Assembly: GCA_028714535.1 (NCBI GenBank)
Contig: JAQTME010000005.1
Coordinates: 2,781 to 66,780, forward strand
DNA: 64,000 nt
From: Candidatus Iainarchaeum sp.
Lineage (GTDB): Archaea > Micrarchaeota > Micrarchaeia > Anstonellales > Bilamarchaeaceae
Reading direction: 5' to 3'
How positions within the stretch are numbered: the stretch's first letter is position 1; every line of letters starts with the position of its first letter. A program made the translations under genes and the position numbers. Below the pieces are notes generated by a model, which worked only from the letters and a program-made list of their open reading frames with translations, ran no database searches and was not told where the DNA came from. Shown here in pieces: positions 3,001-43,929 of the stretch.

Positions 3001-5256
3001 GTTGCCCAGGTCAGGGAACCCGAAATTGAAGTATGCCGAGACGTTCTGGCCGTCGAGCGAGTACGTGTCCTGTCCCCAGGTGACGTTGTAGGAGCCGCTG
3101 GCCGGCAGGTCCCACGACGTGCCCTGCGACTCGTTGGCCGTGTCGCCCCAGCCGATGGCTATGTTGCTCTGGTTGTCGAGCACGAACGGCGTGACCATCC
3201 ACAGGTAGCGGTCCGTCACGTTCACGCGCAGGAGCCAGTTGCTGAAGGGCGACGTGTAGTGCTGCAGGGAAAGCAGCGAGATTGAGGGCGGGACGTTGTC
3301 TATCGTGAGGTTGGGCATGTGCGTCTCGTTATACCCGCTGCTGCCGGACGCGTTCAGCACCAGGCTGTAGTTCTCGCACTCGCCGGCGCAGAACGACGCC
3401 GTGGTCCAGTTGCACAGGAAGACCTCCATGCTGCCGTTCTCCATCGCGCCCGTCCCGTCGCATATGGTGGCGTTGTAGATGTCGTTGAGATAGGCGGAGA
3501 GCGACCAGTTCCCCACGTCAGGGCCCATGATGCGCCCCCAGACCTCGTAAACGCCGCCCACGAACTGCATGAGGGTGCCGCTTATGTTCTCATAGCCCCA
3601 GTAGCCCGGGCGGGTTATCTCCACCATGGGCGGCATGCCGCTCATGTTGCTGTCGAAAATGCCGTAGGTGCCGTTCTCAGACAGGCTGCTTGAGAGCGTG
3701 TTGGCCGACGTGTTCAGCACCGAAAAGGGCACGGAAGACCAGCCGCTGCCGTTGTGGCGGAAGAGCTGGAAGTTGGTCTCGTTGTAGCCCGCAAGCTCGC
3801 CGTCGGACCAGCTCCAGGTGGCGTTGTCTATCCAGACATTGGAGATGTTGAATAGGAGGTACTTGCCTGCGAACGATATCGCGTCGGGGGGCAGGGTGCC
3901 CGTGCCGTTGCTCCAGTTGATGGTGTAGTTCCCGATCAGGGCCTCGATGGTGTTGTTTATGGAGAGCGTGGTGTTGGCCGATGCGTTCCCGAACACCACC
4001 TGCTCCAGGTTGATCGTGAGGAAGTCTGCGAAGGCTGCCTTGTCGAGCCGGAAATCCATGCCGTTGCCCAGGAGCCGGCCGCCGCTGATGACGGTGTTGT
4101 TGGAGTCGAGGTTGTAGATGCCGAGGGTGTTGTTGTAGGCGGTGTTGTTGGCCAGGGTGTTGCTTGAGCTGTCGTACAGCTGGAAGCCGCGCGTGTTGTT
4201 CCAGGCGAGGTTGCCGCTGAGCAGGTTGCCTGACACGGAGGCGTTGAGGCTGAATCCGCTCTGGTTATTGCCATATGCGCTGTTGTTGGCCAGGGTGTTG
4301 CCGTCGCAGCCGGTGCCGTAAAGGAAGAAGCCGTTGGCGTTGTTGTAGGCGGAGTTGTTGGTGGCGTTGTTGCCGGTTGAGTCCCAGGTGAAGCTAAACC
4401 CGGAGTTGGCGTTGTTGTAGGCGGTGTTGTTGGCCACTGTGTTGGAGGGGGAGCTGTCGAAGGCGAACCCTATCCTGTTGCGGTAAGCCGTGTTGTTGAT
4501 GACGGTGTTGCCGGAGGCGTATTCGAGGTAGTAGCCCTCCATCACGTTGTCGTAGGCGCTGTTGTTGACGAGGATGCTGTCGCTGAGGGAGCTGAGGTAG
4601 AATGCGCTATCGCCGGTGGTGTTGCAGACGGTGTTGTTGATGAGGGAGTTGTTGGAGCCGGAGGCTGAAAAGGCAACGGGGCCGCTGAAGCAGACGATGT
4701 TGTTTGCGAAGGAGTTGAAGTTCCCGTTGCTCTGGACGCCGGGGCTGCCGTTGTATGCCGCATTGCCAGTGATATTGTTGCCGGAGCTCGCGACGAGGCG
4801 GAAGCCGGTGCCGGAGAGGATTGCGGTGTTGTTGGCCAGGGTGTTGTTGTTGGATGAATCGAGATAAAATCCGGTGTTGGAGTTGTTGTAGGCGTTGCTG
4901 TTGGCGACGGTTGTGTTGTTGGACTGGTAGGCATAGACGCCGGTGGTGTACTGGCTCACGTTCCGGCAGTTCCTCACCGTGACGTTGGTCAGGGAGCCGT
5001 TGAGCAGGATGCCGTAGGTCGTGCCGGCGGTGCCGTTGTTAGTGATGCTGAAGCCGGCGCAGTCGAATACCACGTTGGATGCGGCTATCTTGACGCAGGC
5101 GGTGCCTGACAGCGGCGATGCGTTGTTTGGCGCGCCGGCGTAATCATCAGTCATGTTGGCGCTGGCGGCGATAGGGGCTGGGCAGTCCGCTGCGAATGCC
5201 ACGCCGTTCAGAAGCAGGAGGGACCCCAGAAGAAAGAATATGCAGTTCATTCGCAT
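1..5256 (-). CDS. Giant secreted multidomain protein (partial, >1752 aa, runs off left edge): signal peptide, parallel beta-helix (PbH1/NosD-like) repeats, Ig-like and Cys-rich segments, PPC-like domain, I9-like prodomain, S8 subtilase
   Basis: Hand translation from ATG 5256: MRMNCIFFLLGSLLLLNGVAFA (signal). Then NNT/ANN/AYNN beta-helix repeats, DAYEPDDSLGQA...DVDYVKF (PPC-like), YTIINGFSG (I9-like), CIIDTGINYTHPD (Asp at 274-276) and DDNGHGSHVAG (His at 154-156). The frame is the same at both ends and at sampled interior points. It is absent from the ORF track, consistent with no stop inside the window. Confidence 0.9.
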   Translation of the reverse strand, partial: MRMNCIFFLLGSLLLLNGVAFAADCPAPIAASANMTDDYAGAPNNASPLSGTACVKIAASNVVFDCAGFSITNNGTAGTTYGILLNGSLTNVTVRNCRNVSQYTTGVYAYQSNNTTVANSNAYNNSNTGFYLDSSNNNTLANNTAILSGTGFRLVASSGNNITGNAAYNGSPGVQSNGNFNSFANNIVCFSGPVAFSASGSNNSLINNTVCNTTGDSAFYLSSLSDSILVNNSAYDNVMEGYYLEYASGNTVINNTAYRNRIGFAFDSSPSNTVANNTAYNNANSGFSFTWDSTGNNATNNSAYNNANGFFLYGTGCDGNTLANNSAYGNNQSGFSLNASVSGNLLSGNLAWNNTRGFQLYDSSSNTLANNTAYNNTLGIYNLDSNNTVISGGRLLGNGMDFRLDKAAFADFLTINLEQVVFGNASANTTLSINNTIEALIGNYTINWSNGTGTLPPDAISFAGKYLLFNISNVWIDNATWSWSDGELAGYNETNFQLFRHNGSGWSSVPFSVLNTSANTLSSSLSENGTYGIFDSNMSGMPPMVEITRPGYWGYENISGTLMQFVGGVYEVWGRIMGPDVGNWSLSAYLNDIYNATICDGTGAMENGSMEVFLCNWTTASFCAGECENYSLVLNASGSSGYNETHMPNLTIDNVPPSISLLSLQHYTSPFSNWLLRVNVTDRYLWMVTPFVLDNQSNIAIGWGDTANESQGTSWDLPASGSYNVTWGQDTYSLDGQNVSAYFNFGFPDLGNDSPTASVPGCLKPNASAPWDCEGWFSCGENCSKPYRMWLIYNLSGGDNKSLLGITSEQWCTPSGCALNTSLISPANDTGFIPQLIHFNTTSGEKTYNNNSNITVFYPANSSSNLPLVWLWTSGGYFMGYEARDYVNADIASWNVSVDTQGPMIDARVANPDIFFSSYDGLVNLSVNATDPGGVATVTADFSEINDSACGGIFNLTYDNATGLWGGTCNISQYIAHATGINFTFIFINATDNGGNWNVNGTGILVHNLGVPDMGNGTNCTRFGNLTTNFTRELDFNRINFIIQVEGNMSCMSGNPGAPTSFGSMAVINLTSVNLSTQESADKLRNLGFAIRIDIGSPHSFQPSVVYVNTSYFQELDTNATVSMYKLPFASQPPVVAENSSRQAGISNISWSPGYTQAPSGGTCYLNTSAPTCTGKPHVTCDLMPWCNWTGSSCVDIVPSCSAFIDAPSCMSTGKCLWSPGYVPQGNLTFSVGGFSGYNVSENLTPIISIISPANGSVMLGSRPLAVNLTVNGTGTEPSYILIILNYTGNQYSYDASSGNVTNNTANCSAVSPGSELYRCTFNTTSIPPGAYGMAVLAYDFASPPPGNNATNMSTFTLTALAPDAYEPDDSLGQANWIPANGSMQRHNFHSTSDVDYVKFNATAGYTYIVQTVTRNSSGIIDTEMALFNASGTALAYSDDIVTGVNVSSRIMFRAAQNGTYYVGVDELYGNAGGVYDLFVQQQGILISSIINVTSSSLRLNGTFNITTTTQCIGGPCGNVTATLDPLPGIAPAGKLSLQGMAARDGSVPVIVKLKDVEPAGQASIAAAMGDSQAAVLSTLSAGEFQPVYRYTIINGFSGRATPDGLQKLLDNPAVESVSYDRELHIALDVSVPHINAPEVWNITVNGSSMNGTGQTVCIIDTGINYTHPDFGGYLTFPNAKVVGGYDYINNDSNPMDDNGHGSHVAGIVASMDATYRGVAPGAKIAMVKVCNAGGSCPGSAMLAGIQWCANN

Positions 5257-5295
5257 GGCTGAAAAACCGCGGGCTATATTTATATATAGTGCCCG

Positions 5296-5958
5296 TCAGG
5301 CGCGTTTTCTCGTCTCGAAACATGCGCTTTCAATCTCTGCCACTCCGCGCACGCCGTCCCATGACTTCTTCCATTTTTTTATCCTTATGCGCTTTTTGAA
5401 GAACGGCGCGTCGGCCACGAACGTCTCCCCCTCGCCGCCTTCCAGGAACGGGTGGATGCCTGGCTTTTTGCCTGATGCCATGGCGTCTGCCAGCTTCCTG
5501 AACGGCTCGCCCAGGAATTCCGGGCCGAGCCCTTCTGCCGAGACGGCTGTGACGTAAATCTCGAAGTTGCCGAGGAGCTCTTCCATCAGGCCGCTGCCCT
5601 GGCCCTTGTGCCACAAAGGCGCGTATGTCGGTATGTGGAGCTTCTCGCCGATGGCGTCGATGCGCCTGCGCTGGTACTCGCTTTCCACCGCGCCGGTCGC
5701 GATGCCCCCGGCCTTCATGCGGCGGAACGCCTTCGTGAGCCGGGCATCCCAGTTCTTTTCGGTCACGCTGACGAAAAGTTGCTTCAGGCCCATGGCCTCT
5801 GCCTGCATCTTCGTCCACCTGATGTTCGGGTGGTGGAACATCATCGAATAGTCCGGCGGCCTGACGGTGACCAATGTCACGTCGAAGCCGTGCATCATGG
5901 CCCAGAATGCGGCCATCACGCTGTCCTTGCCCCCGGAGAAAAGAACAGCGACGCGCAT
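5296..5958 (-). CDS. dph6: Diphthine--ammonia ligase (Dph6-like PP-loop ATPase)
   Basis: N-terminal VAVLFSGGKDS PP-loop, SMMFH, GAVESEYQ and EGGEGET motifs. Confidence 0.85.
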   Translation of the reverse strand: MRVAVLFSGGKDSVMAAFWAMMHGFDVTLVTVRPPDYSMMFHHPNIRWTKMQAEAMGLKQLFVSVTEKNWDARLTKAFRRMKAGGIATGAVESEYQRRRIDAIGEKLHIPTYAPLWHKGQGSGLMEELLGNFEIYVTAVSAEGLGPEFLGEPFRKLADAMASGKKPGIHPFLEGGEGETFVADAPFFKKRIRIKKWKKSWDGVRGVAEIESACFETRKRA

Positions 5959-5991
5959 GCGTTAATAAGGAAACCGCTGTTATAAAAATAT

Positions 5992-6762
5992 ATGATAAAG
6001 GCTGTGATATTCGACCTTGACGGGACGCTCTACCGCGGCAAGACGCCATTGCCCGGCGCTGCGGAGACACTGGACGCGCTGCGCGGCAGGGGCGTGAAGG
6101 CGCTCTTCCTCACCAACGCCGCGACAATGGGCAGGGCAGAGGTCGCCGCGAAGCTCAACGGCATGGGGCTGCGCGCGAAGAAGGAGGACGTCTATTGCGG
6201 CGCGTACCTGCTCGCGCGCTACATCGCGCAGAACCACAAGGGGAACCCCGTTTACGTCGTCGGGGAGAAGGGGATTTTCGACGAGCTGAAGGAGATGGGC
6301 ATAACCACGGTGGAGGAGGGCGCGGGCGTGGTCGCGGTGGGGCTGGACAGGAGATTCACCTATGACAAGCTCGCGAAGGCGCATCTCGCGCTGAAGCGCG
6401 GCGCGGTGTTCCTCGCGTCCAACACGGACGCGACGTTCCCTGTGGAGGGCGGAGAGCTGCCCGGCGCGGGCGGCATGGTCGCTGCCATAGAGAAGGTTTC
6501 GGGGAAACGGCCGCACGTGACAGGCAAGCCCAACCCCTACGTGATGGAACTCATAGAGAAGGAGCACGGGCTTAAGAAACAGGAGATAATGGTCGTGGGC
6601 GACAGGCTGGAGACCGACATAGCGTTCGCGAGGAACTGCGGGGTCAAGTCCGCGCTGGTCCTGAGCGGAGCGTCGAAAAAGGAGGACATAAGGGAAAACG
6701 GCATGCGCCCTGACTACGTGTTCGGAAGCGTCGCCGAGCTGATCAGCGCCGTGCTGCCCTAA
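5992..6762 (+). CDS. HAD-IIA (NagD-like) hydrolase
   Basis: FDLDGTLY motif I, FLTN, GKPNP and VVGDRLETDI motifs. Confidence 0.92.
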   Translation: MIKAVIFDLDGTLYRGKTPLPGAAETLDALRGRGVKALFLTNAATMGRAEVAAKLNGMGLRAKKEDVYCGAYLLARYIAQNHKGNPVYVVGEKGIFDELKEMGITTVEEGAGVVAVGLDRRFTYDKLAKAHLALKRGAVFLASNTDATFPVEGGELPGAGGMVAAIEKVSGKRPHVTGKPNPYVMELIEKEHGLKKQEIMVVGDRLETDIAFARNCGVKSALVLSGASKKEDIRENGMRPDYVFGSVAELISAVLP

Positions 6763-7046
6763 TCTTCCATCAGGTCGCGTATGGCGTCGCTCGGGATCTC
6801 CGGCGTGAACAGGCTCTCGTCTATGTTGACAAGGGGCGCCTGGTCGCTGGACGAGCTGGACGAGGACGACGGCTGCGACGATGCTGCGTTCGGGTCCACG
6901 ATGCTGTAGTTTATCTGCATCGCGCTCCCGCACCTCGAGCACTTGCCCGAAAGGATGAGTTCCTTCATGTCGAGCTCGCTGTTTATGTTCACGTTCGCTT
7001 CAAATCCGCAGCTTGAGCACTTTATGGTCCTTCTGAGGTCGGTCAT
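6759..7046 (-). CDS. Small zinc-ribbon protein with Ser-rich linker
   Basis: CSSC...CSRC pairs, poly-Ser tract, acidic C-terminus. Start assumed at MTDLRR. Confidence 0.65.
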   Translation of the reverse strand: MTDLRRTIKCSSCGFEANVNINSELDMKELILSGKCSRCGSAMQINYSIVDPNAASSQPSSSSSSSSDQAPLVNIDESLFTPEIPSDAIRDLMED

Positions 7047-9555: not shown

Positions 9556-11031
9556 ATGAAAAAAGTCATCATAAGTTTGATCCTGTTGGCGATGCTGGCC
9601 GGCTGCCTCGGCCAGGCTGGAACCGCCCAGCCTACGAAGGAGGAGGTCGGGAAGGCACTGGGAAACGTGACGGCTGCACCCGTGAAGGAACTGATATCGG
9701 TGGGCGGCAGCGACAACCTTTCTGTTGTCAGCATAAGCGCCGTGAACCAGAATGGCAGCTGGCTGTTCCCTATGAAGGATTATGAAGGGCAGTTCCAGAG
9801 CGCAGGCCTCTACAGCACGGCGTTCATGCAGCTGAACGGTTCGCAGATCAGGTGGCTTGATGCCGGCGAGAGCATCTGGCTGACCGCGATGGTGCGTAAC
9901 GGCACCGGCGTGCTCTTCAACGCCGTATATTCCAATGACGCGGTCAACTGCAGCACGGGCAATATCAGGATTCTCGGCAGGGATTACGCGCTTTCAGGGC
10001 TGAGGAACGGCTCCAGCTTCCTCAGGGACGACAAATGGAAGGTGGCGGTCGATTCCCAGGGCGGCTGCCCGAGTCGCATTCTCATCTACATGGACGGCTA
10101 CTTCGACAGGATGAAGGATGGCGAGCAGATAAACCTTTTTAGGAACGACAACACGGTCCTGCTCTCTTTCGAAGGGCTTGCCACGTCGCCCTCGCTAAGG
10201 ATGATAGCCATAGAGCCGGGCATCACTGCAACAACGGAAAACAGAACCATGAATGCGGGTCCGAACAGGACCACGATTACGGATCGGACCAGCCAAGACA
10301 CGGTTACGCAGAGCTTCATACGTACATACAATGATGTTGATGTCTTACCGGGACAGCAGCAGGTCGTGGACACATTTCATGGCGGGAAAATAATCACGGA
10401 AACGACCACCTTTGATACGCCTCTTCAGGTCTTCACAGACAGTGCAGGGGGCAGGATGCTAAAGACAAACGGGTATCGGGCCATGAACAACCTGACTAAT
10501 GGTGCGGGAGGCAAGGCCATACCGGAGGTCCTGCAGGCCGGATTGTTCGATGTGCCTAAATGCCAGGCAACGGTGCTGGGCGAAGATTACGTCCTTCTGA
10601 GCTTTAACGACAGCGGCATAGTGCTGGCAAAGGAAAGCGCGGCGGGCATAATAGACCTGGAAAAGACCCTTACAGCCGATGGCCTCACATTCAGACTGGA
10701 CCGCGTCGGCGGGAGTGGCAGCCCCTCCAATCTCTGGTGGGCGAACGTATCCATATTGGACACGAACGGAAACGTCCTGAAGAAGGACAAGGTAGGCGAG
10801 TCGGAGACTAAGGATTACATCATAAACGGCAAAGACCACAAGTTCCACGTCTACCAGGTAGCGCCGGGTTACACCTTCGCGGCACAATGGGCCAGGGTGG
10901 CTGTCTTCTCGGAGATGGCATACGTGGAAGACGGCGGCACCTTCACCGCCTCGTCCAACCAGAGCTATTCGTTCAGCATGAACCGGAGCGGGGATACGCT
11001 GCAGGGCTGGCAGTTCAGGGCGCTCCCCTGA
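9556..11031 (+). CDS. Putative lipoprotein with S-layer-like domains
   Basis: Lipobox-like LAGC after a hydrophobic stretch, many N-x-S/T sequons. The C-terminal VYQVAPGYTFAAQWA segment recalls archaeal S-layer proteins (from memory). Confidence 0.6.
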   Translation: MKKVIISLILLAMLAGCLGQAGTAQPTKEEVGKALGNVTAAPVKELISVGGSDNLSVVSISAVNQNGSWLFPMKDYEGQFQSAGLYSTAFMQLNGSQIRWLDAGESIWLTAMVRNGTGVLFNAVYSNDAVNCSTGNIRILGRDYALSGLRNGSSFLRDDKWKVAVDSQGGCPSRILIYMDGYFDRMKDGEQINLFRNDNTVLLSFEGLATSPSLRMIAIEPGITATTENRTMNAGPNRTTITDRTSQDTVTQSFIRTYNDVDVLPGQQQVVDTFHGGKIITETTTFDTPLQVFTDSAGGRMLKTNGYRAMNNLTNGAGGKAIPEVLQAGLFDVPKCQATVLGEDYVLLSFNDSGIVLAKESAAGIIDLEKTLTADGLTFRLDRVGGSGSPSNLWWANVSILDTNGNVLKKDKVGESETKDYIINGKDHKFHVYQVAPGYTFAAQWARVAVFSEMAYVEDGGTFTASSNQSYSFSMNRSGDTLQGWQFRALP

Positions 11032-11089
11032 CCGGTGCCGCGAGCCCAATATTTGAAAAACCAACCGGTTGATGTAATACCAGAGGCAC

Positions 11090-12172
11090 ATGGGACTGCA
11101 GGAGAAACTGAAGGAGCTCGAGGAAGAGCTTGGGCGCACGCAGAAGAACAAGGCCACGGAGTACCATATCGGAATCCTCAAGTCCAAGATAGCGCAGATA
11201 CGCCGCGAATTGATTTCGCCGAAGAAGCACGGCGCGAGCGCGGGCGGGTTCGACATAAAGAAGAGCGGCGACGCGACCGTCGCCATGATGGGCCTGCCCA
11301 GCGTTGGCAAGAGCACCCTCTTGAACAAGCTGACCAAGGCTGAATCCAAGACCGCGGCGTACGCGTTCACGACTTTGAAGTGCATACCGGGCGTCATGGA
11401 ATACAACGACACCAAGATACAGATTCTTGATTTGCCGGGCATAATAGAGGGGGCCAAGGACGGCAGGGGCCGCGGGCGCGAAGTGATAGCGGTCGCGAGG
11501 AACGCGGATTTGCTGCTGCTCATGGTGGAGGCCGCGAGCCCGAGGCAGGTGCGCATAATAGAGAACGAATTGTACGGGTTCGGCATAAGGATAAACGCCA
11601 GGGCGCCGGACGTGTCCGTATCCAAGCAGGCGCGCGGCGGGGTGACCATAAACGCCACCGTGCCGCTCACCAAGATAAGCAACAGGGAGATACTCGCCGT
11701 GCTCAACGAGTACCGCATATTCAACGCCAACGTGGTGCTGCGGCAGGACATGACCCTGGACGAGTTCATAGACGCGCTCGAGGGCAACCGCGCCTACATA
11801 CCTGCGATATACCTGCTGACCAAGGCGGACCTGGTCAAGAACGTGGGGAAGCTGCCGTTCAGTTATATACCGGTGTCGGCAGAGACAGGCGCAGGCCTGG
11901 AGGACCTGAGGAGGGAGATATACCTGAAGCTGAACCTCATGCACGTCTATACGAAGAAAAGGGGCGAGCAGGCAGACATGCACGAGCCGCTGGTGGTGCG
12001 GCGCGGCACCACCGTGGCCATGGTCTGCGAGAAGCTGCACCGCGACCTGAAGAAGGAGTTCCGTTTCGCGCTTGTCTGGGGGAAGAGCGTCAAGCACCAG
12101 CCCCAGCGCGTCGGGCTCGGGCACGTGCTCACGGACGGGGACATAATACAGATTATAAAACGCCAGGGGTGA
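11090..12172 (+). CDS. drg: DRG-family GTP-binding protein with TGS domain
   Basis: GLPSVGKST (G1), AAYAFTT (G2), DLPGIIEGAKDGRGRG (G3), C-terminal TGS VWGKSVKH. Confidence 0.95.
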   Translation: MGLQEKLKELEEELGRTQKNKATEYHIGILKSKIAQIRRELISPKKHGASAGGFDIKKSGDATVAMMGLPSVGKSTLLNKLTKAESKTAAYAFTTLKCIPGVMEYNDTKIQILDLPGIIEGAKDGRGRGREVIAVARNADLLLLMVEAASPRQVRIIENELYGFGIRINARAPDVSVSKQARGGVTINATVPLTKISNREILAVLNEYRIFNANVVLRQDMTLDEFIDALEGNRAYIPAIYLLTKADLVKNVGKLPFSYIPVSAETGAGLEDLRREIYLKLNLMHVYTKKRGEQADMHEPLVVRRGTTVAMVCEKLHRDLKKEFRFALVWGKSVKHQPQRVGLGHVLTDGDIIQIIKRQG

Positions 12173-12181: not shown

Positions 12182-12763
12182 ATGGCATACGAGCAGAAGA
12201 ACTTCGACGGGTTGTTGGGGATTGAAGGGTTCAGCGACACGCTGCTGAAGAACCACTTCACGCTCTACGGCGGCTATGTCGCCAACACGAACAAGGCGGC
12301 TGACCTGCTGGCGGGCATGGCCAAGGACGGCAGGGCCGGCACGCCTGAATACGCAGAGGTGAAGCGGCGTTTTGGGTGGGAATATAACGGCATGCGGCTG
12401 CACGAATATTACTTCGGGAACATGAGGAAGGGCGGCGCTGCGATGGGGCCGGCGCTCGCGAAGGCGCTCGCCGCGGAATTCGGCTCTGCCGAGAACTGGG
12501 AGAAGGACTTCCGTGCCACTGGCGCGATGCGCGGCATCGGCTGGGTGGTATTATACTACGACGGCGCTGCGAAGCGGCTGTTCAACTGCTGGGTGAACGA
12601 GCACGACGCCGGCCACCTTTCGGGCGCCACGCCTGTGCTCGTCATGGACGTGTTCGAGCACGCGTACATGATTGATTACGGGCTGAAGAAGGCGGACTAT
12701 ATCGCCGCGTTCATGAAGAACATCGACTGGAAGGAAGCCGAGGCGCGGTTCTCGCGCGCCTAA
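12182..12763 (+). CDS. sod: Fe/Mn superoxide dismutase
   Basis: Metal ligands in NHFTLY, RLHEYYF and MDVFEHAY. Confidence 0.9.
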   Translation: MAYEQKNFDGLLGIEGFSDTLLKNHFTLYGGYVANTNKAADLLAGMAKDGRAGTPEYAEVKRRFGWEYNGMRLHEYYFGNMRKGGAAMGPALAKALAAEFGSAENWEKDFRATGAMRGIGWVVLYYDGAAKRLFNCWVNEHDAGHLSGATPVLVMDVFEHAYMIDYGLKKADYIAAFMKNIDWKEAEARFSRA

Positions 12764-13602
12764 TCCACATACAGCACGCTGATTTCCGGGCGGGTGAGGA
12801 AGCGCACGCCGCCGGGTATCACGCCGCAGGTTATGTACATGTCGTGCTGGCCGAGCTTCGCCCTCCCGCCGACCGTGTCGCCGAGCCCCAGGACGCGGGT
12901 GATGGCATCGGTCACCATCGGCAGCCGCACCTGTCCGCAGTGCGTGTGGCCGGAAAGCAGGAGCGCGCCTGCCGGGAGCTCCTCGCCGTAAAAGGCCACT
13001 GGGTTGTGCGCCAGGATTATCTGCGGCACGGCTGGGCTGATGCCCTGCTCCGCTTTCCTGAAGTCGTTGCGGCACGCCCAGTAATCGTCGATGCCGACGA
13101 TGGCGACGCGGTGCCCTGCCGCGTCTATTATGCGGTAGTCGTTGCGCAGCACCGTTATGCCCATGGACTCCAGCTTGGCCGCGACCTTGTCAGCGTAGGA
13201 GGCGTTGGCTCTCGAGCAGCCCCATTCCCGGTAGTCGTGGTTGCCGAGGACCGCGTAAACCCCGTATTTCGCCCGTATGTTCCCGAGCGGGCCGAGCTTC
13301 TCCCATGCGCCGTCATCCAGCTCCACGTAGTCGCCTGCCAGGAACACGATGTCCGGTTGCTGCGCGTTCACGAGCGCGACCGCGCCGTCGAGATAGTTCG
13401 GGTAGTCGTACGTGGTTTCCGTGTCGCTTATGAGCACCGCCTTCAGCGGCGCGCCGTGGCCGTCGAAAAGGCTGAAGTTGTTCTCGGTGACCTCGAGGTC
13501 GTAGGGCGCGATGGCGAATGAGTAGAACGCGACGACAAGCAGTACGGCTATCGCTGCGGGCAGATAGGGCATCATGCGGTCTATCATGCTGATGGCACGC
13601 AC
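12760..13602 (-). CDS. Membrane-anchored metallophosphoesterase (YkuE-like)
   Basis: LISDT, LAGDY, VLGNHD, AHNP and SGHTHCGQ calcineurin-like motifs. N-terminal TM. Confidence 0.9.
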   Translation of the reverse strand: MRAISMIDRMMPYLPAAIAVLLVVAFYSFAIAPYDLEVTENNFSLFDGHGAPLKAVLISDTETTYDYPNYLDGAVALVNAQQPDIVFLAGDYVELDDGAWEKLGPLGNIRAKYGVYAVLGNHDYREWGCSRANASYADKVAAKLESMGITVLRNDYRIIDAAGHRVAIVGIDDYWACRNDFRKAEQGISPAVPQIILAHNPVAFYGEELPAGALLLSGHTHCGQVRLPMVTDAITRVLGLGDTVGGRAKLGQHDMYITCGVIPGGVRFLTRPEISVLYVD

Positions 13603-13640
13603 CGCAGGATTTAATTTGTTTCTTTTCCAGATAGGAGCCC

Positions 13641-13904
13641 ATGGACATAGGGGCTGACATGGACAGGGTCATATCCTGGTGCGAGGATGCCAAGCGCCAG
13701 CGCGGGCGCACGCCGGTCATAGAGCGCAACCCGTTCCGCGACGAGATGCCCTGGATGCGGCGCTTCACGCTCATAGAGATAGACCGGCCCAAGGAAAGCG
13801 CGTCCAGGCACAGCCTCGTCTACGACTCCACGACCAGGTCGCTCTGGCAGTTCCTGAACGGCACCTGGCACAGGGTGGAGAGGGAGCTCAGGGTCGAGAG
13901 ATAG
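13641..13904 (+). CDS. Small hypothetical protein
   Basis: Compact ORF with host-like codon usage directly upstream of the membrane AAA gene. The true start may be 13659. Confidence 0.6.
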   Translation: MDIGADMDRVISWCEDAKRQRGRTPVIERNPFRDEMPWMRRFTLIEIDRPKESASRHSLVYDSTTRSLWQFLNGTWHRVERELRVER

Positions 13905-13940
13905 GCGCATATTAAAAAAACCCAGCACGGAAGCACTACC

Positions 13941-16634
13941 ATGCCAGCAGTGAAGCAGCAGTCCATGGGCCGGCAGAAGGTGGCGGCCTATCTCGCCATG
14001 GCCCAGCGCAGCGATTCGCTGTGGGGCGCGTTCCTCGTATTCCTCGGCGCCCTCGCGCTGCTCAGCAGCATACCGTTCTATCCCGTCTACATCGTGCTGG
14101 CGCTGGCCGCGGTGTGCGGGCTCGTCGCCCTCAGGTATCCGCCCGCTGGCGTTGTAGTCGGCGCGCTCTTCGCCTTCCCTGCGGTCGTCTACCAGTCCGC
14201 GGTCTTCGGCTGGCTCTACGTGATGATACTTTCCGCGATACTTTTCGAGGCCGTGGAGAACTGGCGGATAGTATCGACGCTGCAGGTGCTCGTGCTCGCG
14301 CCCTTCGCGTTCGGCGGCATGCCGTTCGCGGGCTGGCTCAGCATCCTCGGCATGGCCCTGGGCTCGTTCCATTTCGGCTCCCGCAAGAGCATATCCATAT
14401 CGCTCCCGGCGGTCTTCCTCATATTGTTGCTGTCGTCCCTCTGGGTCGTGCAGAACAGCGCGTACCTGCCGCTGAAGATGGACCTGTACCAGCCGGGCCA
14501 GCCGGACCTGCTGTTCGCGAAGCCGGCCCTTGACATAGGAGCAGTGGGGCCCGCGGCCGGAGGCGCGCTCGCGGCGTTCCTGGACTGGGCCAACATCCAG
14601 CGCATATGGAACGCGTTCAACTGGCTGGCTGGCAACGTGCTGCTCCTGCTCGTCAGGGACTCGCTGCTGCTGCAGCTCGCTGCCTGGGGCTTCGCGCTCT
14701 GGTTCATGAGCTGGCTCTCCAGCAGGCAGTCGCAGCTCGTGTCGTCGCTCGCCCTCCTCACCGTGCTCCCTGTGTACTTCGTCATCGGCCTGCTGTACGG
14801 GACGCAGCTGCAGCCCGGGCTTGCGGGAGGGGTCGCCTGCGCAGTGGCAGTCCTCGCGGTGCTGGGCCAGGGGGGCGTCCGCATAAGCCGCGAATCCGAG
14901 GTGGAGCGCGGCGAGAAGATGAAGGCATACGGCAAGTTCGGAATGGCCGACATCTCCATGGGCGGCGAGGAGAGGTCCATGGCCGACGTGGGCGGCTACG
15001 ATGACGTGAAGGACGAGCTGCGCGAGGCCATAATGGTCCCGCTGGAGAAGAAGGAGCTCGCCTATACCTATGGGATAAAGCCGCCGGCCGGCATACTGCT
15101 CTTCGGGCCGCCTGGAACAGGAAAGACCATGCTCATGCGCGCGCTCGCGAAGGAATTGAAATACAACTTCATAGAGGTCCGCTCGTCCCAGATAATGTCG
15201 CAATGGGTCGGCGAATCCGAGAAGAACGTGGCCGAGGTGTTCGCCAACGCGCGCAGGAGCGCGCCCACGGTGCTGTTCTTCGACGAGATAGACTCCATCG
15301 CCAAGAAGCGCAGCTCGATGGGGGACAGCCTCGACGTGGTCGGGCCGCGCGTCCTGAGCGAATTGCTCCAGCAGATAGACGGCGCGAACAAGGCGAAGGG
15401 GACCGTGATGGTGATAGGAGCGACAAACCTGCCGAACGAGCTGGACACCGCGCTGCTTCGGCCAGGGAGGCTGGACAAGATAATATACATGCACCTGCCC
15501 GACCCCGAGGCCAGGCGCGCCATACTCAAGGTGCACCTGGGCAAGCTGCCTGTCGATGAGAATATCGACATGGACGTGCTGGTGAAGAAGACGGACAGGT
15601 TCTCAGGCGCGGACCTGAAGAACGTGGTCACAGAGGCGAAGCGGCTCGCTGCGCGTGAGGCGTCGCAGAAGGGCAGCATCGTCCCGATTTCAATGGAGCA
15701 CATGCTCACCGTGCTTAAGCAGGTCAAGCCGAGCACAGGGCTGGCCCAGCTGGACAACTACGAGCAGTTCAGGATGGACTTCGAAAGGCGCGTCGGCGCC
15801 GCGAAGCCGAAAGAGGAGGAGGCCGCGAAGGAGACCGTGGTGAGGTGGGACGACGTTGCGGGCCTGGACGAGGTGAAGCAGGCGCTGCTCGAAGCGATCG
15901 AGCTGCCGCTGCTGCACGAGGCCGAGATGAAGGAGTTCAAGGTCAAGCCCAGCAAGGGCATACTGCTGTTCGGCCCGCCTGGCACGGGCAAGACGCTCAT
16001 AGCGCGCGCCGCCGCGAACGAGCTGAAGGCGTCGTTCCAGGCGCTGAGCGCAGCCGAGGTCATGAAGAAGGGCTACACGCAGGCCGTCGGCGTCATAAAG
16101 GAGGCGTTCAACCGCGCGCGGGAGAACGCGCCGGGCATAATATTCGTCGACGAGATAGAGACGTTCGCGCCGGCCAGGGGCATGGGCGGCTCGGCTGAGA
16201 TACTGGGCCAGTTCCTGACCGAGATGGACGGCGTGAAGGCGCAGAAAGGGGTCGTGGTGCTGGCCGCGACCAACAAGCCCACGCTCATGGACCCTGCCAT
16301 CATGAGGCCGGGCAGGTTCGACAAGATATTCTACCTGCCTCCGCCAGACGAGAAGGGCAGGGCGGACATGTTCAGGATACATCTCGGCACGTTCGCGGAA
16401 GGGATTGACGTTGATGCGCTCGCGGGCATGACAAACGGGTTCAGCGGCGCGGACATAGCTGAAGTGTGCCAGAGCGCGAAGATGGTGGCGCTGCGCGCCA
16501 AGCTGGGCGGCAGGCCGCAGAAGCCGACCACAGAGACCGTCGCCGCGGTCATAAAGAAGAGGAGGCCGTCCATAACGCCTGCGATGCTCGAGGAATACGA
16601 GCGCTTCATGGAAGCGTACGGCGAACGGAGATAA
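13941..16634 (+). CDS. CDC48-like tandem AAA+ ATPase with N-terminal multi-pass membrane domain
   Basis: Two AAA modules (GPPGTGKT/FFDEID/PGRLD and GPPGTGKT/FVDEIE/PGRFD) preceded by ~310 aa of largely hydrophobic helices. Confidence 0.92.
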   Translation: MPAVKQQSMGRQKVAAYLAMAQRSDSLWGAFLVFLGALALLSSIPFYPVYIVLALAAVCGLVALRYPPAGVVVGALFAFPAVVYQSAVFGWLYVMILSAILFEAVENWRIVSTLQVLVLAPFAFGGMPFAGWLSILGMALGSFHFGSRKSISISLPAVFLILLLSSLWVVQNSAYLPLKMDLYQPGQPDLLFAKPALDIGAVGPAAGGALAAFLDWANIQRIWNAFNWLAGNVLLLLVRDSLLLQLAAWGFALWFMSWLSSRQSQLVSSLALLTVLPVYFVIGLLYGTQLQPGLAGGVACAVAVLAVLGQGGVRISRESEVERGEKMKAYGKFGMADISMGGEERSMADVGGYDDVKDELREAIMVPLEKKELAYTYGIKPPAGILLFGPPGTGKTMLMRALAKELKYNFIEVRSSQIMSQWVGESEKNVAEVFANARRSAPTVLFFDEIDSIAKKRSSMGDSLDVVGPRVLSELLQQIDGANKAKGTVMVIGATNLPNELDTALLRPGRLDKIIYMHLPDPEARRAILKVHLGKLPVDENIDMDVLVKKTDRFSGADLKNVVTEAKRLAAREASQKGSIVPISMEHMLTVLKQVKPSTGLAQLDNYEQFRMDFERRVGAAKPKEEEAAKETVVRWDDVAGLDEVKQALLEAIELPLLHEAEMKEFKVKPSKGILLFGPPGTGKTLIARAAANELKASFQALSAAEVMKKGYTQAVGVIKEAFNRARENAPGIIFVDEIETFAPARGMGGSAEILGQFLTEMDGVKAQKGVVVLAATNKPTLMDPAIMRPGRFDKIFYLPPPDEKGRADMFRIHLGTFAEGIDVDALAGMTNGFSGADIAEVCQSAKMVALRAKLGGRPQKPTTETVAAVIKKRRPSITPAMLEEYERFMEAYGERR

Positions 16635-17303
16635 TCAGCTTCTTAGGGCGGCGAGGACGTTTCCTGACGCGTTTCCGCAGATTTGCTGCACCAGCTCCAG
16701 GCCGGCGGTAACCACGCGCGTGAAAGTGATGGCGAGCGCGTCCAGGTTCTTGGGGACCAGGCAGCCGAGATGGTACCGCTTGTCCAGGGGTATCACGATG
16801 TCCAGCACGGCGAACTCGGCGTATTTCCCCGGCGGGATGAACGACGACCAGATGAGCAGGTCGTAGGGATGCTTCTTACGGTCGAGGGCGGCGAACTGCT
16901 CTAGGTCTGCTTTGACGTTACGGAAATCTTCCCGCATGCCGAGGATGGATACCAGCATCGGGCCGACGAGCTCTTGGGTGAAGACCTCTATGTGCCCTGA
17001 CCTGAGCGGACGGCAGCCCATGCCGAGCGCGTTGAGCCTGTCCGCGTTGCGCATGAGCAGGCCGGCGGCCTGCGGCTCCACAAGGTCAAAGCCCCTGATG
17101 CCGATCGCCGACAGGGCGATGTGGAGGTGGAACTCGCCCGGCTCGCGCGAGAGCGCGCGTATCAGGTCGTAGGAATCGGCGAAATGGCCTTGGAACAGGT
17201 CCCTTACCCTCGGCTGGAGGTGCGGCAGGACCTGGCTGGTGAAATTCTTCCTGCACAGCTCCAGGTGGGTTTTGCTGCCCGGGAACGCTTGCGTTGTTGC
17301 CAT
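16635..17303 (-). CDS. Hypothetical protein, paralog of 17306-18004
   Basis: Shares HFxDSYxL, GLLxRxADRL and LxSILG blocks with its neighbour. Confidence 0.7.
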   Translation of the reverse strand: MATTQAFPGSKTHLELCRKNFTSQVLPHLQPRVRDLFQGHFADSYDLIRALSREPGEFHLHIALSAIGIRGFDLVEPQAAGLLMRNADRLNALGMGCRPLRSGHIEVFTQELVGPMLVSILGMREDFRNVKADLEQFAALDRKKHPYDLLIWSSFIPPGKYAEFAVLDIVIPLDKRYHLGCLVPKNLDALAITFTRVVTAGLELVQQICGNASGNVLAALRS

Positions 17304-17305
17304 AA

Positions 17306-18004
17306 TCATGCCCACATTTCACAGGCCGGCTGCGCCACGGTGTTTTCGGTGAGAAACCTGGTTTTCAGCATTTCAGGTATGGATTTCAGCCTTCCCATGA
17401 CCTGCTCCACGACCGCGACTGCCGCGGCGACCAGCGGTGCCGTCTTCAGGAATCCGTCCTGCTCTGAGGGGAATTGCATCATGCCCGTGCAGGTATCTAT
17501 CTGGTTTATGACAAATATATTGTCCGGGGCGACCAGCGAGGGCCAGCCCAGCCGCGCGTATGGGTATGCCAGTGGCTTGGCCAGGTTGAGCCTCGCGAAC
17601 TCCGTGAGGCCTGCATTCATGGCCCCCCAATTGCGGATGCGCTTGCCGAGGATGGATGCAAGCTGCGGCATGAGGGTTTCGGGGTTGAACGCCTCCACCG
17701 TTCCGGGTTCCTTGATGTGGAAGGCCAGGCCCAGCGTCTTGAGCCGGTCAGCGTGGCGCTGGAGCAGCCCGTAGAATGACGCGGGAAGCAGCTCGTGGCA
17801 CTTTACGCCGAACGAAAGCAGGCCGAAGCCGACCGGCAATTGATCGCCGGATTCCTTGGACAGCGAGTTCACCAGAAGGTAGGAATCGCAGAAGTGCCGC
17901 TCGAACGCCCTGGTTGCCGGGAAAGACGGCACGACGTTGCGGATGTAATTCGCCCTGCATGCCAACAGATGCTGCGCTGAAACGGTTGCTTGTGGTGTTG
18001 CCAT
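17306..18004 (-). CDS. Hypothetical protein, paralog of 16635-17303
   Basis: Same shared blocks. Its stop lies 2 nt before the next ATG. Confidence 0.7.
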   Translation of the reverse strand: MATPQATVSAQHLLACRANYIRNVVPSFPATRAFERHFCDSYLLVNSLSKESGDQLPVGFGLLSFGVKCHELLPASFYGLLQRHADRLKTLGLAFHIKEPGTVEAFNPETLMPQLASILGKRIRNWGAMNAGLTEFARLNLAKPLAYPYARLGWPSLVAPDNIFVINQIDTCTGMMQFPSEQDGFLKTAPLVAAAVAVVEQVMGRLKSIPEMLKTRFLTENTVAQPACEMWA

Positions 18005-25889: not shown

Positions 25890-27089
25890 TCAATCCCAGA
25901 ACTCGTTATCGACGTATAGCTGCTTTCCGCCCCGTATCACAGTGCGGACCTTGCCCTTGAGCGCCTTCCCGTCGAACGGGCTCCATTTGCACTTCGTCTG
26001 GAATTCCGACGCGTCAACGCTCCATTCCTTCTTCGGGTCGAAGATGGTGACGTCGCCGGCGCATCCCTTTTCCAGCACGCCTACGCCCTTCAGGCCGAAC
26101 GTGCCGGCCACGCGGCCGCTCATGCGCTCCGCGACCCATATCCTGTCCAGCAGCCCCTTCGCGCAGGCGTCGAACATGAGCGCAACGCTCGTCTCGAGGC
26201 CGGGGTAGCCGGCCGCGCCGTTCTCCTTGTCCTCGGGCGTGTGGGGCGCGTGGTCCGTGGCTATGCAGTCAGCGCCTTCCAGCATCTTCCACAGCCCGAT
26301 GCGCATCTGCTCGCTGCGCAGCTGCGGATACACCTTCCCGTACGGGCCGAGCCGCTCCAAATCGTTCTTGGAAAGGAACAGGTGGTGCGGCGCGACCTCC
26401 ACGGTGCAGCCCTTCCATCTTTTCGCGAGGAGCAGCTCATGGCCTGTGGAGGCGTGCGCGATGTGTATGCGTCGCTGCATCTTTTGCGCCAGCGACACGC
26501 AGTTCTCGATATTGGCATAGGTCCTTTCCAGGTCCTTCGCCTCGTCAGGGCTGTCGCCGCAGGCATGGAGCACGATTGGCCTGTCCTTATGGAAATTGGC
26601 GAAGTGCCTTTCCAGGGCCGTGGGGTCGTGGAGCATCAGTTCCCCGGTCGTCTTCCCCAGGTAGAGCTTCAATGACTGCGGGTCGGCCTTCCTGACTTCC
26701 GCGAAGTTGGAGTCGGTCCCGCCGAAATGGAACAAAACATTGCAGGGTGCCTTCTCCCTGGCGAGGCGCGCCTTCTCGTCCAGCCGCTCCCTGGTCACCG
26801 TGGGCAGCCTGTTGTTCGGCATGTCCATGACGGTCGTGAAGCCGCCGGCTATCGCGGCGCGGCCGCCGGTCCTGAAGTCCTCCTTGTAGGTGTCGCCGGG
26901 CTCGCGCAGGTGCACGTGCGGGTCGATGAGGCCCGGGAGCACCAGGCAGCCGGGCGCGTAGACGGTTTCGTCCGCCTTCTGCGCATCTGCGCTTGTGGAT
27001 GCGATCACGCCATCTTCGATGAGGATGTCCTTCTGTGAGAAAGAGCCGTTTATGAACGCGAGGCCGCCCCTTACCGCCAGCGTTGTCAT
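25890..27089 (-). CDS. pyrC: Dihydroorotase
   Basis: PGLIDPHVHLREPG, AAIAGGFTTVMDMPN, EVAPHHL, IATDHAPH, KCKWSPFDG. Confidence 0.92.
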   Translation of the reverse strand: MTTLAVRGGLAFINGSFSQKDILIEDGVIASTSADAQKADETVYAPGCLVLPGLIDPHVHLREPGDTYKEDFRTGGRAAIAGGFTTVMDMPNNRLPTVTRERLDEKARLAREKAPCNVLFHFGGTDSNFAEVRKADPQSLKLYLGKTTGELMLHDPTALERHFANFHKDRPIVLHACGDSPDEAKDLERTYANIENCVSLAQKMQRRIHIAHASTGHELLLAKRWKGCTVEVAPHHLFLSKNDLERLGPYGKVYPQLRSEQMRIGLWKMLEGADCIATDHAPHTPEDKENGAAGYPGLETSVALMFDACAKGLLDRIWVAERMSGRVAGTFGLKGVGVLEKGCAGDVTIFDPKKEWSVDASEFQTKCKWSPFDGKALKGKVRTVIRGGKQLYVDNEFWD

Positions 27090-28822
27090 TTTATCCTGCC
27101 CGCTTCGGTGATGAAGACCACGAAACGCAGGAAAAACAGCGATGTGTGCTTGATTATCGCCACGGCCATCTTGTCATACCACTGGTTGCGCTTGTTGATG
27201 ACGCTCAGCAGGTCGCGGAAGGCCTCCTTCTCGCCGGGGCCCATCTTGCTGTCTGTGATCTTCTTGTGCTCCTTGCCGTCTATGATGGTGAGCTCCTCCT
27301 GCTTGCCAATCTGCTTCTTGGCCTGCTCGTACCAGGGCGGGAGCGACGAGCGCTTCTTGGCCACGGCGGTGACGAAGTCGCCGAGTGTGACAGGCCTCTG
27401 CTTGACCTGCTTCTTCGCGAGCTCCTCGGCCTGCTCCTTGGCCATGCCGCCCTTCATGAGCCCCTCGGTCTTCTTCTCGATGCCCATGAAGGCCTCCCTC
27501 CAGGGTATCGTGGCCGCGTCGTCCACTATGGACTTGAGGTCTGCCGAGGCGTAGCCTTCGGTCGCCAGGCCGAGGAAGAAGAACGGCACCCACAGGCCGA
27601 GCGGCCTCTTCTTGGAATGCATCCTGAGTATGGCTATGCGCGAGGTGCGGTCGGGCTCGGGCAGGTATATGGTCTTGCCGAAACGGCCGGACCTCCTGAG
27701 CGCCGGGTCCACGTCCCAGGGCGCGTTGGTCGCGGCGATGATGAGCACGTTCTGGTTGTTGGCCTCGACCCCGTCCATCTCGTAGAGCATCTGGTTGACG
27801 GCCATCTTCATGTACTGCTGGCCCTCCTGCTGGTCCCTGCGGCCGCCGATGGCGTCCACTTCGTCGAAGAACAGTATGCACGGCGTGTTCTTGCGCGCGA
27901 GCTCGAACACCTTGTGGATGTTCTTCTCGGTGTTGCCCACGTACATGTCCAGCAGGTCGGACAGCTTCGCGTTGATGAAGCCGGACTGGCACTCGCCGGC
28001 CGCGGCCTTGACGATGAAAGTTTTTCCACAGCCTGGAGGCCCGTACATCAGTATGCCGCCTCCGCCGAGCTTGCCGTACTTGCGCGCGAGCTCCGGGTTG
28101 CGCATCGGGTAGACCACCGCCTCGCGGATGTCCTCCTTCATCTTGGCCATGCCCGCGACGTCGTTGAACGTCATGTTGGGCTTCGTGAGCATCTTTATGT
28201 CCGCGGTGCCGCCCTCGCCGCCGCCCTTGCCCTCCTGGTCCTTCTTGGCCTTGGCGCTCTCGAGGTGCGTCTTCGCCTCCGTGAGCTCCGGGTTGAGTTC
28301 GAGGGCCTTCTGGTAGTCAGTGATCGCGCTGGATATGGAGCCTGCGTATTCGAATGCCAGGCCGCGCAGGTGGTACGCCTCAGCGAAGTCGGCCTTGAGC
28401 TTGATGACCTTTGTGAAGTCCTCCACGGCTTTTTCGTATTCCTCCACCGACGCGTATGAGAGGCCGCGGTTGTAGAACGCCTTGAGGTAGTTCGGGTTGA
28501 GCGCGATGGCCTTGTCGTAGTCCTTTATGGCGCTCTGGAAGTCCTGCTTGCGGTAGAACGCGTCGCCCCGGTTATTGTATATTATCGGGTTCTGGGGGTC
28601 CAGCTCCATGGACTTCGTGTAGTCGGCGACCGACTTGTCGAAGTTCTTCAGCTGGTAGTAGGACAATGCGCGGTTGAAGTAGGCCTCTGAGAACACCGGG
28701 TTGAGCAGTATGGCCATGTTGTAGTTCTCTATGGCCTTGTCGTAGTCGCCCTTCTCGTAGTAGTCGTTGCCCATCTGGTAGTATGTCTTCGCGTCAGTAG
28801 GATTTGGCTTGCGGTCAACCAT
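27086..28822 (-). CDS. TPR-repeat AAA+ ATPase
   Basis: Several TPRs (AYFNRA, IYNNRG, AFYNRG), GPPGCGKT, FFDEVD, ALRRSGRF. Its stop overlaps the pyrC start (ATGA). Confidence 0.9.
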   Translation of the reverse strand: MVDRKPNPTDAKTYYQMGNDYYEKGDYDKAIENYNMAILLNPVFSEAYFNRALSYYQLKNFDKSVADYTKSMELDPQNPIIYNNRGDAFYRKQDFQSAIKDYDKAIALNPNYLKAFYNRGLSYASVEEYEKAVEDFTKVIKLKADFAEAYHLRGLAFEYAGSISSAITDYQKALELNPELTEAKTHLESAKAKKDQEGKGGGEGGTADIKMLTKPNMTFNDVAGMAKMKEDIREAVVYPMRNPELARKYGKLGGGGILMYGPPGCGKTFIVKAAAGECQSGFINAKLSDLLDMYVGNTEKNIHKVFELARKNTPCILFFDEVDAIGGRRDQQEGQQYMKMAVNQMLYEMDGVEANNQNVLIIAATNAPWDVDPALRRSGRFGKTIYLPEPDRTSRIAILRMHSKKRPLGLWVPFFFLGLATEGYASADLKSIVDDAATIPWREAFMGIEKKTEGLMKGGMAKEQAEELAKKQVKQRPVTLGDFVTAVAKKRSSLPPWYEQAKKQIGKQEELTIIDGKEHKKITDSKMGPGEKEAFRDLLSVINKRNQWYDKMAVAIIKHTSLFFLRFVVFITEAGRIK

Positions 28823-28881
28823 CAGGGTCACTTTCCAATAACGATGTTCGGGTAACTTTTTAAGCCTGATTTATGACTGGC

Positions 28882-39979: not shown

Positions 39980-39988
39980 AGTTACTGT

Positions 39989-43871: not shown

Positions 43872-43929
43872 TGCGTGTGAAACGAGTTATTCGTCAAACG
43901 AAATATTGCTTTTAATTATTTGCAGTATG

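Follow-up and report, generated by a model that had tools for sequence, protein, structure and literature searches.

The locus described here raises the question of what a protein would do that joins, in one polypeptide, a multi-pass membrane domain and two tandem AAA modules. It lies in a stretch of 64,000 nucleotides from contig JAQTME010000005.1 of Candidatus Iainarchaeum sp. (positions 2,781 to 66,780); this whole stretch is referred to as the window. The gene occupies 13941..16634 on the + strand and encodes 897 amino acids (aa) followed by a TAA stop, arranged as membrane domain, linker, AAA module D1, linker and AAA module D2. We put at about even the chance that its product is a self-anchored, membrane-embedded type-II AAA unfoldase, specific to the Micrarchaeota, that acts as an extractor or segregase of membrane or membrane-proximal proteins. 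Membrane-anchored AAA unfoldases are a known kind; what would be new here is the pairing of an apparently orphan membrane fold with a double ring.

In the open reading frame (ORF) list of the window, 13941..16634 (+) is a single uninterrupted ORF of 897 codons. An earlier interpretation of this DNA, made without database searches (hereafter the sequence-only reading), had delimited the gene exactly so, and the frame is backed by Pfam AAA matches (E=6.8e-79, with two AAA and two AAA_lid_3 stretches), by a third-codon-position GC fraction (GC3) of 0.87 that matches other genuine genes in the ~62% GC window, and by homologues. The GC content around the gene is 62-64%, and long spurious ORFs abound because the region is GC-rich. 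One of these, a 641-aa antisense ORF at 13611..15536 (-) that overlaps the ATPase gene, was rejected as an artefact of this composition, the + frame being the genuine one. The motifs quoted in the sequence-only reading are all present, namely SQWVGESE at aa 420-427 of D1, MKKGYTQA at aa 708-715 of D2, and intact Walker A and B motifs.

That reading had also proposed that a multi-pass membrane domain replaces a soluble N-terminal domain. Hydropathy, an all-helical structural model and the lack of a CDC48_N match agree with this proposal, with a minor refinement of the extent of the domain: the membrane part proper spans aa 25-310 (14013..14870) and is followed by a conserved cytosolic linker to about aa 345. 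Over residues 1-315, about ten segments exceed 1.6 on the Kyte-Doolittle scale, and charged residues are nearly absent. The AlphaFold2 model of the N-domain, a monomer prediction from an alignment of 20 family sequences that left aside the translations of loci L001-L003, is all-helical, with a predicted local distance difference test score (pLDDT) of 88.1 and a predicted template modelling score (pTM) of 0.84. A basic amphipathic helix (aa 9-23, 13965..14009; assigned by DSSP), predicted to be cytoplasmic, precedes the polytopic domain, for which hydropathy, the AlphaFold helices and conservation together predict 10-12 spans. The modelled helices are 9-23, 25-43, 49-65, 67-85, 87-125, 128-145 and 147-168 in the N-terminal half, and 199-213, 216-220, 222-239, 242-260, 265-286 and 292-310 in the remainder. 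The linker (aa 311-345, 14871..14975), defined from the AlphaFold model and the alignment, contains a helix at 318-340 and the conserved motif K-x-F-G-K-F-G-x-x-D-L-S, and joins the last transmembrane (TM) helix to D1.

The N-domain is the least conserved region of the protein, with a mean pairwise identity of 29.8% vs 54.5% for D1 and 49.0% for D2. Its family motifs lie at helix ends: P45-F-Y-P, P80-A-x-x-Y-Q85-S, W108 and A120-P-F-A in the first half, and G146-S-[KR]-K-S, L163-L-L-S, N172 and D240-S-x-L-x-Q in the second. Residue Q85 is invariant, and W108, F122, G146 and S147 are invariant or nearly so. Because these motifs are family-wide and a confident fold was obtained from only 20 sequences, the membrane domain is probably more than an anchor.

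Membership of the N-terminal domain in a characterised family would have told against the sequence-only reading; none was matched in Pfam, by profile comparison with the PDB, or by Foldseek against the PDB and BFVD. Pfam returned no family at E<=1 for aa 1-330 of the window protein, CDC48_N included, and no match for the 20 aligned family N-domains; the N-domain profile gave 0 matches at E<=10 against PDB sequences. Comparison of the pLDDT-88 model with 350,542 PDB chains by Foldseek returned nothing similar (best E 0.8, TM-score <=0.2), the top-ranked matches being ABC exporters at E >= 0.95 and TM-score <= 0.18, and the same model had no match in BFVD (best E 1.4). A Derlin, rhomboid or Hrd1 fold was sought among the Foldseek and PDB-profile matches, and no such entry was listed; the Foldseek PDB library presumably holds Derlin, Hrd1, rhomboid, SecY, YidC and TatC entries. 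No internal repeat was found when the N-terminal and C-terminal halves of the domain were compared using hhalign. On these sequence and model comparisons we assign the membrane domain to no characterised family and regard it as an orphan fold.

Charge distribution was used to orient the domain. Averaged over the family, net positive charge is found at the N-terminal tail (+3.1), in loops 65-68 (+0.7), 145-150 (L6, +1.7) and 260-265 (L9, +2.0), and in the C-terminal linker, and net negative charge at 169-198, 199-221 and 239-241. A metagenomic relative of 987 aa (P0043) begins with a signal-like N-terminus, a probable extracellular domain of ~330 aa with N-glycosylation sequons and one TM helix, after which come the counterpart of the polytopic domain and one D1-like AAA module. 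In this protein the K/R-rich segment equivalent to aa 9-23 follows the extracellular domain and the TM helix, which places the N-terminal end of the polytopic domain in the cytoplasm. From the charge pattern and P0043, both ends of the membrane domain are predicted to be cytoplasmic. Since the AAA modules are necessarily cytoplasmic as well, the number of spans should be even; it would be 10 if aa 199-239 form an outside or re-entrant hairpin, and 12 if this segment crosses twice.

By amino acid sequence, D1 and D2 are both AAA modules of the classical Cdc48/p97/VAT-like group. Module D1 (aa 346-616, 14976..15788; Pfam AAA at 385-518) contains Walker A GPPGTGKT at 389-396, Walker B D448-E449, sensor-1 N496 and the Arg fingers R507/R510, and its lid ends in Y607-x-x-F610-x-x-x-F-E-R-R. 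Module D2 (aa 637-897, 15849..16631), delimited by Pfam, PDB matches and the alignment, contains the corresponding GPPGTGKT at 678-685, D737-E738, N778 and R789/R792, and the protein terminates in Y-G-E-R-R, kept as YGER[RK] across the family. Between them lies a charged and poorly conserved linker (aa 617-636, 15789..15848; 25.5% mean pairwise identity). In the alignment the Walker A/B, sensor-1 and Arg-finger residues of D2 are invariant, and the catalytic residues of both modules are invariant or nearly so. As these elements are intact in both modules, both rings are expected to be active in ATP binding and hydrolysis and to assemble in the manner of other classical AAA rings.

Members of the classical AAA clade, such as Cdc48, PAN/Rpt, FtsH, Msp1 and Vps4, are ring translocases in which pore-loop aromatics thread polypeptides from the N- to the C-terminal face. 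Pore loop-1 of D1, W422-V423-G424 (15204..15212), keeps its aromatic in the alignment, at one of the two positions preceding the Gly in 15/15 aligned members, and the surrounding S-Q-W-V-G-E-S-E presumably resembles the D2 loops of VAT and p97. The equivalent position in D2, K709-K-G-Y712 (16065..16076), is degenerate across the family, reading [KR]-x-G with no conserved aromatic. The divergent D2 loop alongside intact Walker A and B motifs, pointed out in the sequence-only reading, is thus borne out, with the refinement that the degeneracy is a property of the family and not of this sequence alone.

The relationship between the two modules was examined by sequence comparison. Each module alone has D2 of p97/Cdc48/VAT as its best PDB match (E ~1e-113 to 1e-117); when the protein is aligned to the p97 chain, D1 pairs with p97 D2 (218.5 bits) and D2 with p97 D1 (177.3 bits). 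Pfam also detects a Vps4_C-like element 3' of D1. The modules are 40% identical to each other and end in a shared lid motif, Y..F...[FY]-x-E-R-R, while single-AAA relatives are closer to D1 (45-48% identity) than to D2 (40%). The greater resemblance of these relatives to D1 suggests that the membrane domain and D1 form the core unit, and, taken with the shared lid motif, that D2 may be a later duplication.

To establish how far the fusion extends, the N-domain alone (aa 1-330) was searched exhaustively by phmmer against 1.84 billion cluster representatives, which gave 42 matches. In every complete match (887-926 aa) the domain lies at aa ~5-340 and is followed by two Walker A/B pairs. The short matches resemble contig-end fragments: each stops within the N-domain, and one (P0002) lacks a start Met. 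Even the weakest matches carry AAA modules after the matched region, two in P0037 and one each in P0039, P0042 and P0043. Word-indexed searches with the N-domain, by sequence and by profile, recovered only 3-4 contig-end fragments, hydrophobic words flooding the candidates. A scan of one genome per GTDB species located three loci (L001-L003), titled 'Candidatus Micrarchaeota archaeon', each with one uninterrupted 900-aa ORF, and an unbroken ORF of 887-926 aa is found in at least 14 independent assemblies, which come from NCBI, ENA, JGI and Logan. A named family member, MEM4366516.1 ('AAA family ATPase [Candidatus Anstonellales archaeon]'), lies on a 558-kb contig; Anstonellales we take to be an order of Micrarchaeota, and all named sources of the family are Micrarchaeota. 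Because complete and distant matches to the N-domain alone all carry downstream AAA modules, the fusion is, on sequence evidence, ancient, obligate and, as far as sources are named, restricted to Micrarchaeota. It is kept in every complete homologue, and the N-terminal region is not a separate gene in them.

Three members contain inteins inside D1, between Walker A and Walker B, with one or two in each: P0004 (1080 aa), which has a mini-intein, and P0005 (1403 aa) and P0012 (1912 aa), which have LAGLIDADG-containing inteins. No intein was seen in D2 of these three proteins.

The closest PDB sequences are those of Cdc48/p97/VAT, which share with the present protein two tandem classical AAA modules with AAA_lid_3 and intact Arg fingers and sensor-1. 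The differences are nevertheless substantial. The double-psi-barrel/beta-clam N-domain of those proteins (CDC48_N/CDC48_2) is replaced here by an all-helical polytopic domain, both modules best match Cdc48 D2, and, opposite to p97, the grip lies in D1 and the degenerate loop in D2. The CDC48 family model TIGR01243 scores 505.5 bits vs a cut-off of 802.65, and its best stretch (aa 342-616 on profile positions 447-731) corresponds to the D2 part of the profile. The description 'CDC48-like' in the sequence-only reading therefore holds for the AAA modules and fails for the protein as a whole. A further difference concerns the C-terminus. HbYX, defined in PMC3493965 as [hydrophobic/small]-[Y/F]-x at the very C-terminus, is the motif through which PAN, Cdc48 and AMA of archaea open the 20S proteasome. 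Proteasome docking through HbYX was rejected here, given the family C-terminus YGER[RK], and the PAN models score the ATPase below cut-off. With no Cdc48 N-domain, a sub-threshold TIGR01243 score, two D2-like modules and no HbYX, the protein is, as judged from its sequence, not a member of the Cdc48 family.

Among membrane-anchored AAA proteins, the FtsH/Yme1/m-AAA proteases resemble the present protein in that N-terminal helices of the chain itself hold a classical AAA motor at the membrane, entry face toward the bilayer, and the task proposed here, pulling out membrane proteins, is theirs too. FtsH, however, combines 2 TM helices and one AAA ring with a C-terminal M41 zinc protease, whereas here there are ~10 helices, two rings and no protease. 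The FtsH model TIGR01241 reaches 396.5 bits vs a cut-off of 600 and covers the AAA part only (profile 130-389 of 598). Peptidase_M41 was not among the 25 listed of the 59 matched Pfam families, and there is no room for a protease domain because the two AAA modules fill the chain to the C-terminus. To our knowledge archaea lack FtsH, which would leave a functional gap there. Msp1/ATAD1 and Bcs1 are generally known as classical AAA proteins that anchor themselves, lack a protease domain and carry proteins out of a bilayer or across it. Each combines one TM helix with one AAA module, in contrast to the polytopic domain and second ring seen here; unlike the Msp1/ATAD1 type, even the single-AAA relatives P0039 and P0043 carry the polytopic domain. 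For Msp1, self-anchoring and protein movement without a protease domain are described in PMC12624790. The Sulfolobales membrane-bound AAA (MBA) group is listed in PMC3493965, which cites Serek-Heuberger et al. 2009, and is the only archaeal membrane-bound AAA group mentioned in the literature searched. Its members are, as here, archaeal, membrane-bound and deeply branching classical AAA proteins. By description only, they differ in having a single AAA domain and other N-terminal regions, as opposed to the double AAA found here. Work by Serek-Heuberger and colleagues from 2009 is said to describe MBA1 and MBA2 as single-AAA proteins with different N-terminal regions, confined to Sulfolobales.

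Membership of a defence system was considered and rejected. The NCBIfam model IteA (IetA/IteA anti-phage) gave 216.5 vs a cut-off of 510; the likeness to PADLOC IetA and to TRIP13 reflects the generic AAA core, the neighbours are core genes, and no protease is adjacent. The literature searched contains no account of an archaeal protein that unites a polytopic domain with a double AAA, and as far as those sources extend the single-chain design appears not to have been described previously.

In the mechanism that we favor, each protomer would contribute a conserved ~10-helix membrane domain with both its N- and C-ends in the cytoplasm, so that a hexamer would place 60-72 helices around the pore. 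The ~35-residue linker would keep the entry (N-terminal) face of D1 directly under the membrane, and because this face is tied by those residues to the last membrane helix, the input to the pore would have to come from the membrane side. The aromatic pore loop of D1 would grip part of a polypeptide offered by the membrane domain or at it, and ATP hydrolysis would pull it toward the cytoplasm, through D1 first and then D2. Because D2 has lost the aromatic pore loop, it would hydrolyse ATP without gripping and probably supplies power or ring stability. The substrates would most likely be integral or membrane-associated proteins, extracted or disassembled for quality control, as by FtsH or Msp1 elsewhere. 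Their release to the cytosol, and not direct passage into a docked protease, would be expected since the chain has neither a protease domain nor an HbYX tail. We infer hexamer formation, the direction of threading and the nature of the substrate; an extractor function would fit the geometry, with the D1 entry face tethered to the membrane. The sequence-only reading had called the protein an ERAD-like machine, after endoplasmic-reticulum-associated degradation (ERAD). This did not survive except as a functional analogy: ERAD (Hrd1/Derlin with Cdc48) and the symbiont-derived ERAD-like machinery (SELMA) also couple a membrane module to a double-ring Cdc48-type motor pulling toward the cytosol, but they are multi-subunit and ubiquitin-dependent with a soluble Cdc48, and the membrane domain here has no Foldseek likeness to any PDB chain.

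Several observations weigh against an extractor. The anchors of known membrane AAA proteins consist of 1-2 poorly conserved helices; a domain of ~10 conserved helices is unlike these and may act in its own right, for instance as a channel, receptor or enzyme. With few members and a restricted lineage, the family is not a general archaeal solution. Gene neighbourhoods, which are not conserved at distance, yielded no identifiable substrate or partner. The span count is also under strain, as aa 87-125 form one continuous 39-residue helix in the AlphaFold model. Polar insertions of 10-20 residues at the polar middle of this helix (E102-R109) in P0016, P0027 and P0032 suggest a hairpin in place of the single helix.

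These objections lead to the alternatives, of which one keeps the motor and demotes the membrane domain. As a membrane-localised general segregase, the protein would use its N-domain only to anchor and oligomerise a Cdc48-type unfoldase, and would dismantle peripheral complexes (division, ESCRT-like or surface-layer assembly machinery) and not integral proteins. The generic Cdc48/Vps4/PAN-like character of the AAA modules, the Vps4_C-like element after D1 and the low conservation of the N-domain are consistent with this, but an anchor of the usual kind would not call for ~10 helices with a confident common fold and the near-invariant Q85, W108, F122, G146 and S147, nor for a domain that remains joined to the AAA modules even in very distant relatives. 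We consider this explanation unlikely. The size, conservation and novel fold of the membrane domain, which exceed the needs of an anchor, can instead be accommodated by a translocon with a built-in motor, in which six membrane domains form or gate a conduit and the AAA rings pull unfolded polypeptides into the cell. Such a protein could import, for example, host or environmental proteins, and would resemble SELMA/ERAD-derived import or the Ycf2-FtsHi import motor. Micrarchaeota are host-dependent DPANN archaea with reduced biosynthesis, and the restriction of the family to them, the tethering of the D1 entry face to the membrane domain, and the ~330-aa extracellular domain that P0043 places before the same membrane domain would all suit import. 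Against this, no PDB chain with a channel-like fold was matched by Foldseek, a conserved charged or polar pore-lining pattern was not identified, and linked extracellular or surface genes are not conserved in the neighbourhoods of family members, which makes a translocon distinctly improbable. A related and still more doubtful proposal is a single-chain retrotranslocon, whose six orphan membrane domains would form a lateral-gated or central conduit with the D1/D2 motor pulling polypeptides through.

The conserved loop motifs YQS, GSKKS and DS..Q of the orphan domain could also point away from protein substrates, toward an ATP-driven transporter or enzyme whose AAA rings remodel their own membrane domain to act on a lipid, glycan or small molecule. 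This is very unlikely: no classical-clade AAA protein is generally known to act so, D1 retains a substrate-threading aromatic pore loop, catalytic-type His, Asp, Glu or Cys residues are not conserved in the domain alignment, and no transporter or enzyme fold likeness was found, the ABC exporters ranked by Foldseek being far from significant (E >= 0.95, TM-score <= 0.18). Finally, a membrane-protein gene and an AAA gene might have been joined by assembly or sequencing error. One ENA metagenome contig (L004, 2803-3987) does have the gene called as two pieces. There, one in-frame TAG stands where relatives have a conserved W or Y codon, and homology runs on past it in the same frame; the cause may be a sequencing error, a pseudogene or read-through. 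A two-gene artefact is refuted by the uninterrupted frame conserved in the independent assemblies given above, and is left a negligible chance.

Removal of faulty membrane proteins in archaea is poorly understood, and in eukaryotes ERAD couples a membrane module to Cdc48 through many subunits. A natural one-chain fusion would offer a minimal and tractable system in which to study how ATP drives extraction or translocation at membranes, and its membrane domain would add a new membrane-protein fold. The asymmetry of the pore loops, with grip in the membrane-proximal ring and none in the distal one, would be a natural experiment on how type-II AAA machines divide labour between their rings. The fusion may also be relevant to the upkeep or exchange of membrane proteins in DPANN symbionts with reduced genomes. 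Should the retrotranslocon proposal prove true, Micrarchaeota would own a machine like ERAD or SELMA whose evolution was independent of ubiquitin, Derlins and Hrd1 and which would dislocate membrane proteins or import host-obtained proteins.

The local gene block consists of a DRG-type GTPase, an Fe/Mn superoxide dismutase, a metallophosphoesterase, an 87-aa ORF, the ATPase, two opposite-strand paralogues and an H+-pyrophosphatase, and the identical block recurs in L013 and L014. An AT-rich box, gCATATTAAAAAAA, read from the sequence at 13908..13920 (+), is centred ~26 nt upstream of the ATG. The box ACATTAAAAAA(A)C is found at equal distance in L001, L002, L003, L013 and L014, with similar boxes in L004 and L005, and lies 20-31 nt 5' of the ATPase start codon regardless of the preceding gene. 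We regard it as a putative archaeal promoter, with TATA box and transcription factor B recognition element (BRE), that would drive a leaderless or short-leader monocistronic mRNA. Core-genome synteny, this promoter-like box and the inteins in D1 of three members suggest a housekeeping character for the gene. The neighbourhoods of distant members differ, containing ribosomal proteins, an aminotransferase, ankyrin proteins and PIN toxins, and a conserved operon partner was rejected because these distant neighbourhoods are all different. In the Ca. Anstonellales contig (L007), ankyrin-repeat proteins, which are unusual for archaea, flank the family member at 5252-6859, 10826-11581 and 12699-13304.

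The 87-aa ORF at 13641-13904 (+) had been suggested as a possible partner of the ATPase. It is a genuine gene (GC3 0.90) with homologues in >200 clusters at 55-70% identity, nearly all of 85-93 aa and, where named, all from Micrarchaeota. Its AlphaFold model has an alpha+beta fold (pLDDT 91.2), with no Pfam family and no match in a fold search against the PDB. The gene is far more widespread than the ATPase. It keeps the same syntenic place in L011, L012 and L015, where there is no ATPase, and is not beside the ATPase in L003, L004, L005, L006, L007 and L009, where a class I/II aminotransferase is often found upstream instead. Because it occurs independently, is missing beside other ATPases, and the box in front of the ATPase is independent of the upstream gene, the 87-aa protein is not a dedicated partner, and that suggestion was dropped.

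Downstream, tandem paralogues of 226 and 232 aa at 16635-17315 (-) and 17306-18004 (-) are convergent with the ATPase and abut it without a spacer. Neither has a Pfam or PADLOC match. Their homologues hold position in L001-L003, in L014 and in L011, a locus without the ATPase. A second unusual AAA protein of 581 aa is encoded at 27086-28831 (-) and combines N-terminal tetratricopeptide repeats (TPR) with one classical AAA module. It is 37% identical to D1 and falls below the cut-offs of the Cdc48, PAN, FtsH and CdvC models.

Further along the window, positions 37778-48553 form a low-GC island (36-41% vs ~60% GC; GC3 0.32-0.41 vs 0.8-0.9) that has the look of a defence island gained by horizontal transfer. 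Its products are a HerA/FtsK-like ATPase; the two proteins of a Hachiman pair, HamA (40281-41234) and a HamB-like helicase of the DEAD-box type (41235-43871); and those of a type III restriction-modification pair, a Res-like helicase-endonuclease (43930-46332) and an N6/N4 methylase (46313-48136). Just downstream of the island, at 49950-50203 (+), lies a signal recognition particle (SRP) RNA gene whose best model is 'bacterial large SRP' (73.3 bits) despite the archaeal genome.

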